Positions 42,532-48,534 of a stretch of 64,000 nucleotides of DNA are shown here, in pieces. The stretch lies in assembly GCF_001677475.2 (NCBI RefSeq), contig NZ_CP015229.1. The stretch is one strand, 5' to 3'. The translations under genes and the position numbers were made by a program. This DNA comes from Escherichia coli (GTDB taxonomy: Bacteria; Pseudomonadota; Gammaproteobacteria; Enterobacterales; Enterobacteriaceae). A model generated the notes under the pieces. It ran no database searches. It saw only the letters and a list, made by a program, of their open reading frames with translations, and was not told the origin of the DNA. Positions within the stretch are counted from its first letter, which is position 1. Each line of letters opens with the position of its first letter.

Positions 42532-42563
42532 AAAAAAACCCGCTTCAAAAAGCGGGTTTTTTA
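42532..42563. terminator. Bidirectional intrinsic terminator between tatE and lipA
   Basis: aaacccgctt-caaaa-agcgggttt hairpin flanked by an A7 run and a T6 run. Confidence 0.7.
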
Positions 42564-43766: not shown

Positions 43767-44720
43767 TCAAAATGCATTACGGATAACATCTATTACCCCG
43801 TGCAGGATGGGATCACGCAGGCTGAATTTGTTGTAGTGGATAGAGAAATCTATTTGCTCCTCATTTAAGGACGGAAAAGGCAGTTTTTCTAGCGGCCAAC
43901 AACGGCTAAACAGGTTATAAAAACGGCTGGGAATAATCGCTAACATGTCACTGTTGGCAACCAGTGCAGCGATTGTCAAAATGTTGTAGCTGGTGAAACT
44001 GATTTGCCGGTCCGGAAACATCTCTTGAACTCTCTGCCGCAGACCGCTGAAATTTTGCCCTTCCGGTAACAGGAGTATATGCGCAGCGTTGTCGATAGTC
44101 TCCCTGTCATCTTCTAAAGAGAGTAGTGGATTTCCCTCACGGCAAATTAACACCATATTGTCGGTGAACAGAACATGATGTTGCACCGTACGATTGGTGC
44201 AAAACATGTTATCGATGATGAGATCGGTTTGAAACTGACTGAGTTGGTTTTCCGCGTCGCTGATGGGCGGGTTGCGCAGTAAAAGCTGCGGATAGTGAGT
44301 TTTAATCGCCCGATAGATGACAGGAAGGACCAGGGCTCCGACCGAGGGGGTGGTCGCAATAGTTATCGTTCGTTGCTTATCATAGCTTCCTTCGATATCC
44401 AGCGCGCCAAGAATGGACTCAAGGCCCTGACTGATATACTCATGTAGATGCATCGCAAATGCGGTAGGAGTGACACCCTGGCCTTTGCGAATAAACAATG
44501 GGTCAGGGAATATAACGCGCAGTTTCTGAATAGACTGACTGATTGCCGAGGGTGTCAGATTAAGCACTTTCGCTGCATTAACGATCCCTTTATGTACATA
44601 TACAGCTTCAAAAATAGTCAGAAGGTTAAGATCAATATTTCGTAAGGTTGTAAATATTTGTGGTTTACCTTCTGACGACTTTCTGCTTAAACAGGTTTCA
44701 ATTTGATTATTACTATCCAC
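43767..44720 (-). CDS. ybeF: LysR-family transcriptional regulator
   Basis: 317 aa; N-terminal helix-turn-helix (VNAAKVLNLTPSAISQSIQKLR). Confidence 0.88.
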   Translation of the reverse strand: MDSNNQIETCLSRKSSEGKPQIFTTLRNIDLNLLTIFEAVYVHKGIVNAAKVLNLTPSAISQSIQKLRVIFPDPLFIRKGQGVTPTAFAMHLHEYISQGLESILGALDIEGSYDKQRTITIATTPSVGALVLPVIYRAIKTHYPQLLLRNPPISDAENQLSQFQTDLIIDNMFCTNRTVQHHVLFTDNMVLICREGNPLLSLEDDRETIDNAAHILLLPEGQNFSGLRQRVQEMFPDRQISFTSYNILTIAALVANSDMLAIIPSRFYNLFSRCWPLEKLPFPSLNEEQIDFSIHYNKFSLRDPILHGVIDVIRNAF

Positions 44721-44979
44721 GCACTTACTCCAATTTTATTCATGGAAAAATAATATTTAAAAAAATTACAATAATCTTATGTCTAATTGGAACGGAACGC
44801 TTTTGCTCACCATAATCAACTATTTCAATAAGTTAATCAATGGGGTGAGTTACGGAGCAAGGCGTAGCATCGCATTTCTGCAAGTGATAAAGAAAATATA
44901 CAAACGCGAAGGAGATGTAAAGCATTAGCGGGTATTATGAGTAATGACCCAGTGTAAATTGGGCCATTGAGGTATGCAA

Positions 44980-45621
44980 TTAAGCGGTAATATATTCGAA
45001 GTCAGGATTGTTTAGTAGCGCTAAAATATTTTCCAGTAAACGTGGTGCAATATTATTAGTCGTCGCTTCGGGTTTCCATTGTGATATTTTAGCCATTTCC
45101 ATTCCGGCATACCCACAAGGATTAATACGTAAAAATGGTGAAAGATCCATATTGACGTTTAATGCCAGACCGTGGAATGAACAACCGCGTCGAATACGTA
45201 AACCCAGTGAGCAAATTTTCTTTTCCCCGACATAGACACCAGGCGCGTCAGCCCGAGGATGCGCTTCTATACCCAGTTCAGCCAGGGTATTCACCACTGT
45301 TTGCTCAAGCAAGGTCACCAGTTCACGCACACCGAGTTTACGGCGTTTCAGGTTAAGCAACACATACATCACCTGTTGCCCCGGCCCGTGATAAGTCACC
45401 TGCCCACCGCGATCGCTCTGAATCACCGGAATATCACCCGGCATTAAAATGTGCTCCGCTTTTCCTGCCTGCCCTTGAGTGAATACCGGATAGTGCTCGA
45501 CCAGCCAGATTTCATCAAGGGTACTTTCATCGCGGGTATCGGTGAATTCATGCATAGCCTGGGAGATTGGCTCGTAAGGCTGAAGACCGAGCTGGCGGAC
45601 AAGAATTTTATCCTGATACAA
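44980..45621 (-). CDS. lipB: Octanoyltransferase (lipoate-protein ligase B)
   Basis: 213 aa; conserved position between ybeD and ybeF/lipA. Confidence 0.93.
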
Positions 45622-45721
45622 AACGGCATCTCCGTGGAGAATGAGTAAAAGTGGGGGAAAAGTATATCACAGCGAGGAGAGGGGAGTTACCCGACCAGGA
45701 GCCGGGTAACGGAGAAGCGAG

Positions 45722-45985
45722 TTACAGAACCATGCGGACAATATCGATTTTGCCCAGTTCTTCATACAGTGTTTCAACCTGCTCGATATGAGTCGCGTTG
45801 ATAGTGATAGATACCGAGTGGTAGTTGCCTTTGCTGCTTGGTTTTACCGTTGGGGTGTAGTCACCTGGCGCATGGCGCTGTACCACTTCAACCACCTGAT
45901 CAACCAGCTCAGGTAACGCCTGCCCCATAACTTTGTAAGTAAAAGGAGTAGGGAATTCAAGCAGTTCGTTAAGTTTGGTTTTCAT
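45722..45985 (-). CDS. ybeD: UPF0250 family small protein
   Basis: 87 aa; between dacA and lipB. Confidence 0.93.
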
Positions 45986-46094
45986 GTCAGCTCCGGCGTA
46001 ACGTAATTAAATAGCAACTCCCGCCAGAAGGCGGGAGTTTTTTACTGATGCTTAGTATATGGGGACGGAAATTACACTTTCAAGTGTTCAATTT

Positions 46095-47306
46095 TTAACC
46101 AAACCAGTGATGGAACATTAATTTAATGTAATCAATGATTTTGCCGAAGAAGTTACCTTCCGGGATTTCTTGCAACACAACCAGCGGGCGTTGCTCGATC
46201 GTTTTGCCATCAAGCTGGAAGTTGATAGTTCCGACGACCTGATTCTTTTGCAGCGGCGCATGCAATTCACTGCTGTTCAGCACATAGCTGGCTTTCAGAT
46301 CTTTCATGCGACCACGCGGAATGGTCAGGTACACGTCTTTATCAACCCCTAACGAAGCGCGATCAGAATCACCAAACCAAACCGGTTCAGAGGCGAACTC
46401 TTTACCTACTTTCAGTGGGTTAACGGTTTCGAAGAAACGGAAGCCCCAGGTCAGCAGTTTTTTACTTTCGGCTTCACGGCCTTTAAAAGTACGTCCGCCC
46501 ATCACCGCAGAGATCAAGCGCATCTGGCCTTCAGTCGCAGAAGCAACAAGGTTGTAACCTGCTTTGTCAGTGTGTCCGGTTTTGATGCCGTCGACATTCA
46601 GGCTGTTATCCCATAACAGACCGTTACGGTTCAGCTGGCGAATACCGTTAAACGTAAATTCTTTTTCTTTATAGATCGAGTATTCATTTGGTACGTCACG
46701 GATCAACGCCTGGCCGATCAGCGCCATATCGCGCGCGGAGCTGTACTGACCATCAGCATCCAGACCATGTACCGTCTGGAAGTGGGTATTTTTCAGGCCC
46801 AGGGCGTTAACGTAGCTGTTCATCAAGCCAACAAAAGCGTCCTGGCTACCAGCGGCAAAATCGGCCATGGCGACGCAAGCATCGTTACCCGATTGCAGGT
46901 TAATACCGCGGATCAGCTGAGAAACCGGAACCTGCATGCCCGGTTTGAGGAACATCAGCGAAGAACCTTTAAACACCGGGTTACCGGTGGCCCATGCGTC
47001 GTTGCCGATAGTGACTAAATCAGTTTCTTTAAATTTACCGGCTTTCATTGCCTGGCCGATAACGTAACTGGTCATCATTTTGGTCAGGCTGGCAGGATCG
47101 CGGCGGACATCTGCGTTCTGTTCGGCGAGCACTTTGCCGGAGTTATAGTCAATCAGGATGTAGGACTCCGCGTCGATCTGCGGTACACCCGGGATCATAG
47201 TTTTGATATTCAGGTCATCGGCATGTGCAGCAGAGATAAAGGCTGTGCAAAGAGCCGTGGTGAGCGCCAGGCGCTTCATGATACGAGCGGAAAAAATGGT
47301 ATTCAT
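46095..47306 (-). CDS. dacA: D-alanyl-D-alanine carboxypeptidase (PBP5)
   Basis: 403 aa; signal peptide; SLTK, SGN and KTG motifs. Confidence 0.96.
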
Positions 47307-47445
47307 GGTCTGAACTACGACATCCGTGATGGAATTAAAAAAAGTGCCCTACTATAGCAAATGCACTACCGGCAGGCATCTGACTTTCCGCGTGACTTTG
47401 TTAACGTCATTTACAGAAATTGACACATCAGATGCCTGCTTTACG

Positions 47446-48534
47446 CTACTGCGCGGTGGTAATAAATGACTGTAATTGGGCTTCGGTTTGCAAACGTTGC
47501 TGCAAGGTACTGGCTTCGGCTTTGCTGGCGAATGGGCCAAGCTGGATCCGCCAGACCGCGCCATTTTGAGTTACGCGACCGGGGACGCCGAACTTCTGTC
47601 CCAGTTGCTGTTGGTACTGTTGCGCACGCGCCTGATCGCTTACGGCCCCAACTTGCACCATAAAGTTGCCGCTGGCGCTTTGCGAGGCGGCTTGCGGTGT
47701 CACCATTGCAGGCGAGGTTGCAGGCGTTGTCGACGGAGCTGTAACAACGGGCTGTGGCGCAGGTGTTGGTTCGCTGCCTTCCAGAACACCAGGCGCTAAG
47801 GTCGTTGGTGCACCGAGGAAACCGCTGCTGGTTACCGGCGCGCCGGTCGGATCTTCGCTTTTTAGCGTCGAATTACTGACCGGAAGAATGTCACCCTGCG
47901 GGCCAGACACTGAACTTGTTCCCGCGCCACCGCTTAAATCGGGAGGTGCAGGCAGGGCATAAGTCTGTTTAGCAACTGTGGTACAGGCCATACCAGGACC
48001 AGAAAGCGAACCATCCTGGGCGACAATAATCGGATCGATACGAACTTTGGTGTTGTTTGACGTGTTAAGACGGTCAGCTGCCGCGCGAGAAAGCGAAATA
48101 ACGCGGTCGTTGCCGTAAGGACCGCGATCATTAATGCGCACCACGATCATTCGCCCGTTAGCCAGGTTAGTGATTCTGGCGTAGCTGGGGATCGGAAGCG
48201 TTGGATGGGCCGCCGTCAACTGTGTCGGATCGAATGCTTCGCCAGAGGCCGTCAGGTTACTGCCGGGTTCGGCATCATAGATTGCCGCCAGTCCCGCCAG
48301 GCTAAATCGAGACGGATCCTGTACGATTTTGTAGCTTTTACCGTCGCGCTGGTAATCCTGGTTTGCCGTCGCGTTCAGTGGTTCGAAACGCGGGTCCGCC
48401 CCGCTAATTTCAACTATGGGGCCGTTACATACCGCAGGCTGCGGTACACTTACCGTCTGTTGCTGACCATCATCGCTTGTACATGCCGCGAGCATTCCTG
48501 CCGCGATGCAGATCCCGAGCCACTGCTTACGCAT
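47446..48534 (-). CDS. rlpA: Septal ring lytic transglycosylase RlpA (rare lipoprotein A)
   Basis: 362 aa; lipobox LAAC; Pro/Thr/Ala-rich linker; C-terminal SPOR-like region. Confidence 0.93.
   Translation of the reverse strand: MRKQWLGICIAAGMLAACTSDDGQQQTVSVPQPAVCNGPIVEISGADPRFEPLNATANQDYQRDGKSYKIVQDPSRFSLAGLAAIYDAEPGSNLTASGEAFDPTQLTAAHPTLPIPSYARITNLANGRMIVVRINDRGPYGNDRVISLSRAAADRLNTSNNTKVRIDPIIVAQDGSLSGPGMACTTVAKQTYALPAPPDLSGGAGTSSVSGPQGDILPVSNSTLKSEDPTGAPVTSSGFLGAPTTLAPGVLEGSEPTPAPQPVVTAPSTTPATSPAMVTPQAASQSASGNFMVQVGAVSDQARAQQYQQQLGQKFGVPGRVTQNGAVWRIQLGPFASKAEASTLQQRLQTEAQLQSFITTAQ

Follow-up and report, generated by a model that had tools for sequence, protein, structure and literature searches.

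A conserved hairpin between dacA and ybeD of Escherichia coli is probably the sense-strand terminator of dacA, nested in the leader of a sigma-32 transcript

Type I 3′-UTR-derived sRNAs, such as MicL and DapZ, are transcribed from a promoter nested in the 3′ UTR of an mRNA and share the terminator of the parental transcript. Trp and pyrBI are leader-terminator attenuators. Bidirectional terminators are usually recognized by convergent genes and by RNA ends on both strands, and canonical Rho-independent terminators stop a gene's transcripts on that gene's own strand. Here, we analyze a hairpin that shares features with each of these systems. It lies in the spacer between dacA and ybeD of E. coli, within a stretch of 64,000 nt that we call the window. 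A sequence-only reading had proposed that it is a plus-strand terminator that stops antisense transcription or, as a fallback, a weak attenuator between dacA and ybeD. We conclude that the hairpin is probably the sense-strand intrinsic terminator of dacA, situated inside the 5′ leader of the sigma-32 ybeD-lipB transcript, where it also serves as a leaky attenuator. The element is ordinary and already known, as its 3′ end is found in public E. coli maps and the adjoining promoter is a known RpoH target.

Every gene of the lipA-ybeF-lipB-ybeD-dacA-rlpA cluster lies on the minus strand according to ORF reading and sequence matching, and the ORFs bear out the earlier placement of the flanking dacA, ybeD and lipB on that strand. 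A window coordinate equals the K-12 coordinate minus 616657; the ybeD ATG at 45985, for example, is K-12 position 662642. The 701 nt round the hairpin have matches in 5424 of 5426 complete E. coli genomes, at 95-99.9% identity, and the 121 nt across the spacer are one base off K-12 MG1655, the difference falling outside the hairpin. The spacer is 109 nt long and, on the gene strand, runs from the dacA stop codon through a small palindrome, the -35 and -10 elements, an A-run, the hairpin, its tail and the Shine-Dalgarno (SD) sequence to the ybeD ATG. The features are as follows.

46095..47306, minus strand: dacA (PBP5) coding sequence, whose transcripts end at the hairpin
46095-46097, minus strand: dacA stop codon TAA, from the sequence
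46069..46094, minus strand: small hairpin/palindrome AAATT-GA-ACAC [TTGAAA] GTGT-AATTT, directly after the dacA stop codon, in the dacA 3′ UTR
46057..46084, minus strand: sigma-32 promoter of ybeD (CTTGAAA, 13 nt, CCCCATAT), from the sequence and RpoH genomic SELEX
46084-46078, minus strand: -35 element CTTGAAA, from the sequence
46064-46057, minus strand: -10 element CCCCATAT, from the sequence
46049, minus strand: ybeD transcription start site (TSS), K-12 662706, from the dRNA-seq of Thomason 2015 as listed in PMC10687069, Supplementary Data 4
46038..46043, plus strand: T6 run, seen from the sense strand as an A6 tract that precedes the hairpin, from the sequence
46016..46039, minus strand: probable terminator hairpin, sense reading AACUCCCGCC-UUCU-GGCGGGAGUU, with a 10-bp stem and a 4-nt loop
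46005..46015, minus strand: degenerate U-tract of the probable sense-strand terminator (GCUAUUUAAUU), from the sequence
46009..46011, minus strand: RNA 3′ terminus, K-12 662666-662668, listed in PMC10687069, Supplementary Data 2-4, as the primary 3′ end of dacA
45994-45991, minus strand: ybeD SD sequence GGAG, from the sequence
45722..45985, minus strand: ybeD coding sequence, with its ATG at 45985, 30 nt past the hairpin
42533-42562, both strands: tatE/lipA hairpin AAAAAACCCGC-TTCAAAAA-GCGGGTTTTTT, a textbook bidirectional terminator between the convergent tatE (plus) and lipA (minus)

On the plus strand, positions 46016-46039 read AACTCCCGCC-AGAA-GGCGGGAGTT and continue with TTTTAC to 46045. 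The perfect G+C-rich hairpin that had been read on this strand, with the stem actcccgcc/ggcgggagt, is present at 46017-46038. A hairpin scan of both strands found 10 pairs, 7 of them G-C, around a loop of 4, with the tail TTTTACTGAT on the plus strand and GCTATTTAAT on the minus strand. Folding of 51 nt gave -20.0 kcal/mol for the plus strand (z = -4.1) and -21.1 kcal/mol for the minus strand (z = -6.0), and none of 200 shuffles was as stable; overall, the hairpin's free energy ranges from -19 to -21 kcal/mol. The 64-kb window contains 9 distinct hairpins this strong, or 14 hits when overlapping calls of the same hairpin are included, compared to about 2.5 hits expected from locally shuffled sequence. 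Consequently, this class of hairpin exceeds chance.

In a permissive Rfam 15 search of positions 44500-47500, no family reached its gathering score; the best match was to the terminator part of the rnk_pseudo leader, at 19.6 bits versus a gathering score of 55 (E = 4.1). A repeat or mobile element is ruled out, as E. coli genomes carry a single copy of the 61-nt region (median of 1 place), and its same placement in other genera also contradicts this origin. In the genome of E. coli 2020CK-00188, the hairpin loop (the equivalent of window positions 46026-46029) is exactly inverted, from AGAA to TTCT, while the stem is the same; this is the pattern expected of template switching within a hairpin.

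The hairpin owes its plus-oriented look to the T6 run. The first one or two of these T's pair within the stem, and position 46044 is an A; the earlier reading of ggcgggagt followed by tttttt was right about the run itself and counted one T too many, as five T's follow ggcgggagt. The plus strand carries GGCGGGAG, TTTTTT and then AC, with the hairpin directly abutting the T-run (T-score 4.46). In this genome, a d'Aubenton-Carafa-type score is +41.9 for the plus strand and +7.9 for the minus strand, where absolute thresholds are approximate and the energies are those of ViennaRNA. The minus-strand tail from 46015 to 46005, GCTATTTAATT, is indeed only weakly U-rich, as had been noticed from the sequence. 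The E. coli sense U-tract UUGCUAUUUAAU has 7 U in 12 nt and a longest run of 3, with a T-score of 2.43 and a d of about +8. It is thus true of this genome's sequence that the hairpin looks better as a plus-strand terminator (+41.9 versus +7.9), and the plus-strand version appears competent when judged from its letters.

The length of the T-run changes within Escherichia, and across E. coli versions the plus-strand score ranges from +41.9 to +49.9. The run is T6 in the window, in K-12 and in the 3578 of 5423 matching E. coli genomes with no difference from the window across 61 nt; another 1844 genomes show 95-99% identity, and the two variants sampled at 98.4% (E. coli M6 and O111:H2 12A) carry T7. 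On the sense strand, E. albertii and one E. coli assembly have A5, and other genera have A4 or lack the run. Because the A/T-run length is polymorphic within Escherichia, a homopolymer varying between T5, T6 and T7 looks like the product of slippage, not like a constrained signal.

We compared the locus across the Enterobacterales, using a YbeD scan of one genome per species that returned 80 loci. The genera include Escherichia, Citrobacter, Salmonella, Klebsiella, Raoultella, Enterobacter, Leclercia and Pantoea, together with Erwinia, Tatumella, Brenneria, Lonsdalea, Sodalis and others. From these loci, 79 dacA-ybeD spacers were extracted, so that 80 spacers, including the window's, were compared. 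The order of stop codon, CTTGAAA-N13-CCCCATAT, hairpin, SD and ATG is kept throughout the 79 orthologous spacers and the window. Of the 80 spacers, 53 have the strict motif CTTGAAA-N12-15-CCCCAT and 65 have a looser form. The spacing is also kept within limits, with 12-20 nt from the -10 element to the hairpin and 24-32 nt from the hairpin to the ATG.

The stem changes its letters and keeps its pairing. Relatives differ in their stem pairs (CTCCCGCC/GGCGGGAG, CTCCCAC/GTGGGAG, GCTCCCGC/GCGGGAGC, GCCCCCG/CGGGGGC and CTCCTGCC/GGCAGGAG). When 64 distinct orthologous sequences are aligned with MAFFT, pairing holds in 92% of cells, versus 38-54% with the partner slid; 8 of 11 pairs are altered on both sides, and none of 500 shuffles matches the observed covariation score. 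RNAalifold independently recovers the same helix. The strand of the T-run is equally consistent among relatives. Within 12 nt past the core stem, a sense T-run of at least 4 is found in 55 of the 64 sequences and one of at least 5 in 46, whereas an antisense T-run of at least 5 is found in only four rows, all Escherichia. The relatives' counterpart of the E. coli U-tract is UUAUUAUUUUUU or CUGUUUUUU. Terminator scores on the two strands are as follows.

Klebsiella oxytoca: sense +29.8, antisense -19.9
Enterobacter cloacae: sense +21.7, antisense +22.0
Citrobacter youngae: sense +16.7, antisense -9.6
Tatumella ptyseos: sense +15.0, antisense -26.0
Salmonella arizonae: sense +10.8, antisense -11.4
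E. coli (window): sense +7.9, antisense +41.9
E. albertii: sense +1.6, antisense +32.6

In Citrobacter and Klebsiella, the stem is lengthened by A-U pairs (UGAUAACUCCCAC.../...GUGGGAGUUAUUA) and U6 follows at once; by its sequence, this element appears to be a textbook terminator that starts about 4 nt past the inferred TSS. The alignment suggests that the ancestral element was a sense-strand terminator. In Escherichia, UUAUUAUUUUUU would then have become UUGCUAUUUAAUU and the upstream A4 would have become A5-A7, giving a better score on the wrong strand in this genus alone. Because an upstream A-tract can outgrow a decaying U-tract, the strand of a terminator can be misassigned. A hairpin plus a T-run in a single genome can therefore mislead, and a handful of related genomes settles the terminator's polarity.

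Published RNA 3′ ends lie on the gene strand. Among the entries listed for this locus in PMC10687069 (the TRS study), a minus-strand terminus has its dominant position at 662666, 662667 or 662668, within a peak at 662660-662674. The listed entries place it in several data sets, including RNAtag-seq and term-seq from one RNA, with R = 0.89-0.98, p down to 1e-151 and the label 'Primary' for dacA; the listed sequence upstream of it ends ...GGCGGGAGUUGCUAUUU. This terminus sits 5-7 nt past the stem, which is the place expected from intrinsic termination. Among the entries listed in the same thresholded tables, 66268x-66271x is empty on either strand save for the minus-strand TSS, and no plus-strand 3′ end appears at about 46045. 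In the Adams et al. rows round the locus, a plus-strand end is absent at the hairpin and the minus-strand dacA terminus is absent too, while the neighbours at 662338 and 664017 are present. In the part of the TERMITe supplements covered, no entry appeared at the hairpin coordinates or for the genes, and the matches were unrelated Streptomyces rows only.

The tatE/lipA hairpin, 3.5 kb away, provides an internal positive control for two-sided detection, with termini listed in PMC10687069 on both strands (659220 on the plus strand and 659182-5 on the minus strand). As both strands are reported there, a two-sided terminus at dacA/ybeD would be detectable if both strands were transcribed. Antisense RNA ends do occur in the gene cluster: a published plus-strand 3′ terminus, present in the rows of Adams et al. 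and of the TRS study, is antisense to the end of rlpA at window positions of about 47440-47447 (K-12 664097-664104). Yet none is listed at the dacA/ybeD hairpin. As the tables are thresholded, the lack of a plus-strand end among the listed entries is evidence, not proof.

A plus-strand intrinsic terminator that is used in vivo would stop antisense RNA coming through lipB and ybeD before it enters dacA, and the A-run would have been selected for that purpose. We regard this account as improbable, even though a T6 run (T7 in two sampled variants) directly adjoins a stem of 10 bp, 7 of them G-C, the plus-strand score of +41.9 to +49.9 is far above the sense score, and the run has lengthened in Escherichia only, alongside the weakening of the sense tract. 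A plus-strand 3′ terminus is missing from the entries listed at 66268x-66271x, while the plus-strand ends at 664100 and at tatE/lipA are listed. There is no plus-strand gene upstream, and the 9 plus-strand promoter-like sites are no excess over the shuffle expectation of 7.0 +/- 3.1. The antisense T-run is not conserved beyond one genus, and its T5/T6/T7 length polymorphism is as expected for a slippage-prone neutral run. The proposal that the hairpin stops antisense transcription thus conflicts with the listed terminus at 662666-662668, which is on the minus strand and labeled 'Primary, dacA' with none on the plus strand among the entries listed, and with the orientation of the T-run in the relatives. 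The fallback reading, that of a weak attenuator acting between dacA and ybeD, is in essence correct.

A second minus-strand 3′ terminus lies just past ybeD, at window positions of about 45675-45710 (K-12 662335-662338), behind the hairpin UUACCCGGCUCCUGGUCGGGUAA. It is strong in the listed rows of both Adams et al. and the TRS study, where its label is 'Alternative primary in TU'. The tail of this hairpin is C-rich (CUCCCCUCUCC), not U-rich, and the element is not a canonical intrinsic terminator.

The hairpin had been described as lying inside an operon, which is a loose description, as ybeD is served by its own sigma-32 promoter, situated past the dacA stop codon and ahead of the hairpin. 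CTTGAAA-N13-CCCCATAT is close to the sigma-32 promoter consensus. The ybeD TSS lies 8 nt past CCCCATAT and 10 nt ahead of the stem. A sigma-70-like TTGAAA-18-TATACT, which scores 10 of 12, shares the -35 of the sigma-32 promoter that it overlaps. In RpoH genomic SELEX, the dacA-ybeD spacer gave the genome's highest peak and ybeD was called RpoH-regulated (PMC5493296). Two Reg-seq papers name ybeDp in their methods alone and do not mention the hairpin. A predicted CRP site (AAAGTGTAATTTCCGTCCCCAT) also overlaps the promoter region, at window positions 46054-46083 on the minus strand; according to PMC4398509, the E. coli site was unbound, and its counterparts in Enterobacter sp. 638, Klebsiella and Salmonella (site 1) bound CRP.

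The -35 hexamer TTGAAA forms the loop of the small hairpin, and it occupies the same place in orthologous loci. The arms vary by genus (ACAC/GTGT, GGCG/CGCC, CCCC(T)/(A)GGGG, CAGGG/CCCTG, CGCGC/GCGCG and AAATCGC/GCGATTT), and 58 distinct segments were folded, of which 88% form a helix that encloses the -35 (mean z -1.26). Combining 26 helix types by Fisher's method gives a p of about 1e-7; these types are not independent of one another. Among 22 Enterobacteriaceae rows, 83.8% of cells pair, versus 20-50% with the partner slid. Each instance is thermodynamically weak (-2.6 kcal/mol in E. coli), and the pattern is consistent. Speculatively, the cassette of dacA stop, -35-loop hairpin, -10, TSS, terminator and ybeD could be a regulatory device and not a space-saving overlap, a notion to which we give little credence. 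Most heat-shock-initiated transcripts would then stop after about 40 nt unless relieved, the upstream hairpin, whether formed within the RNA of dacA read-through transcripts or in DNA, would couple dacA transcription to use of the ybeD promoter, and Escherichia would have loosened the device by eroding its U-tract.

For the hairpin as dacA terminator and leaky attenuator, the following sequence of events is proposed. RNA polymerase arriving from dacA would form the AACUCCCGCC/GGCGGGAGUU hairpin, and RNA 3′ ends would pile up 5-7 nt past the stem, in the short UUU of GCUAUUU (46009-46011). Transcripts from the ybeD promoter, which begin 10 nt before the stem, would meet the same stop signal. 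As the ybeD start lies upstream of the stem, the hairpin would also act as a constitutive leaky terminator, or attenuator, for ybeD-lipB, and the stopped transcripts would be about 40 nt long. Expression of ybeD-lipB would need read-through; the hairpin would insulate these genes from dacA transcription and attenuate a very strong heat-shock promoter. In Escherichia, the A-run would have grown from A4 to A5-A7 by slippage, probably a neutral expansion, and the sense U-tract would have eroded from UUAUUAUUUUUU to UUGCUAUUUAAUU. The weaker U-tract should permit more read-through in this genus. With a conserved, strong heat-shock promoter ahead of the preceding gene's terminator, ybeD-lipB expression would always depend on read-through, and we know of no prior examination of this dependence. 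YbeD is among the proteins picked from a proteome data set in the Reg-seq literature, which is compatible with an inefficient stop, and the read-through is likely to be partial.

In E. coli, the sense U-tract is of low quality, its d-score being barely above zero, and the mapped 3′ end could therefore reflect read-through RNA that 3′ exonucleases shortened as far as a stable hairpin. The distance of 5-7 nt past the stem fits termination and trimming alike; we infer termination, not exonuclease trimming, as the origin of the end. A related possibility, which we consider unlikely, is that the hairpin is mainly a 5′-UTR stability or translation element of ybeD-lipB, with little termination, and that the mapped 3′ end is a protected decay intermediate. 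The 5′-terminal stem-loops of the ompA type stabilize E. coli mRNAs, and here transcription begins 10 nt ahead of the stem in E. coli and, judging from the -10 spacing, about 4 nt ahead of the lengthened stem of Citrobacter and Klebsiella. The tightly kept 24-32 nt between hairpin and ATG and the weak E. coli sense U-tract would suit such a role as well. However, the 8-10 unpaired nucleotides that precede the stem in E. coli are too many for classical stem-loop protection. The T-run directly past the stem in 55 of 64 relatives is a terminator signature that a 5′ stabilizer does not need, and the 3′ ends accumulate exactly where termination would place them.

Least probable is that the promoter and terminator encode a sigma-32-dependent sRNA of ~40 nt (46049 to 46010), the counterpart of Ssr5, which a promoter-plus-terminator search in Shigella flexneri predicted within the dacA/ybeD spacer, in the same orientation as the genes (PMC4782007): both RNA ends are mapped and at least three families retain the cassette, but the Ssr5 row of that paper has no RT-PCR 'Yes', the RNA would be almost all hairpin with a 4-12 nt 5′ segment poorly conserved outside Enterobacteriaceae, the dacA 3′-UTR/CDS read ratio in LB, as listed in PMC10687069, is no outlier, and the Rfam match is without significance.

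How, then, does the dacA hairpin, read as a sense-strand terminator and leaky attenuator, compare with known systems? Like the tatE/lipA bidirectional terminator, it is flanked by an A-run and, on the opposite side, by a T-rich tract, and its E. cloacae orthologue scores nearly equally on the two strands (+21.7/+22.0). Unlike at tatE/lipA, where both strands have termini, the dacA and ybeD genes are co-directional and the minus-strand terminus alone is reported among the entries listed. By the usual criteria, it is not a bidirectional terminator.

Like the loci of MicL and DapZ, the spacer places a stress-sigma promoter ahead of the parental terminator, and a TSS and a terminus bound a short RNA. 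Here, in contrast, the promoter serves the downstream ybeD-lipB genes, and the short RNA would be nearly devoid of a single-stranded seed. Compared to the trp and pyrBI attenuators, the locus likewise has a terminator between promoter and first codon, and its downstream expression needs read-through, but antiterminator pairing, a leader peptide and any sign of regulated read-through are not apparent here. Folding and inspection by eye of the 109-nt spacer revealed no apparent antiterminator pairing, leader peptide or ligand- or protein-binding domain. SD sequestration or antitermination was rejected by eye, as the 5′ arm and the ybeD SD pair over 4+2 bp versus the 10-bp hairpin. Most simply, the dacA/ybeD hairpin is a constitutive leaky stop. 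To 3′-UTR-nested promoters and to leader attenuators it bears a resemblance, and we claim no membership in either class.

The closest likeness is to the canonical Rho-independent terminators of E. coli. It differs from them in the interrupted U-tract of Escherichia (UUGCUAUUU), with a score near threshold, and in the promoter that lies between stop codon and terminator. It resembles them in its G+C-rich stem of 8-10 bp with a tetraloop, positioned 56-79 nt past the stop codon on the gene's own strand, in the 3′ ends 5-7 nt past the stem, in the A-tract upstream, and in the U6-7 tract of its orthologues. The hairpin is most probably a Rho-independent terminator.
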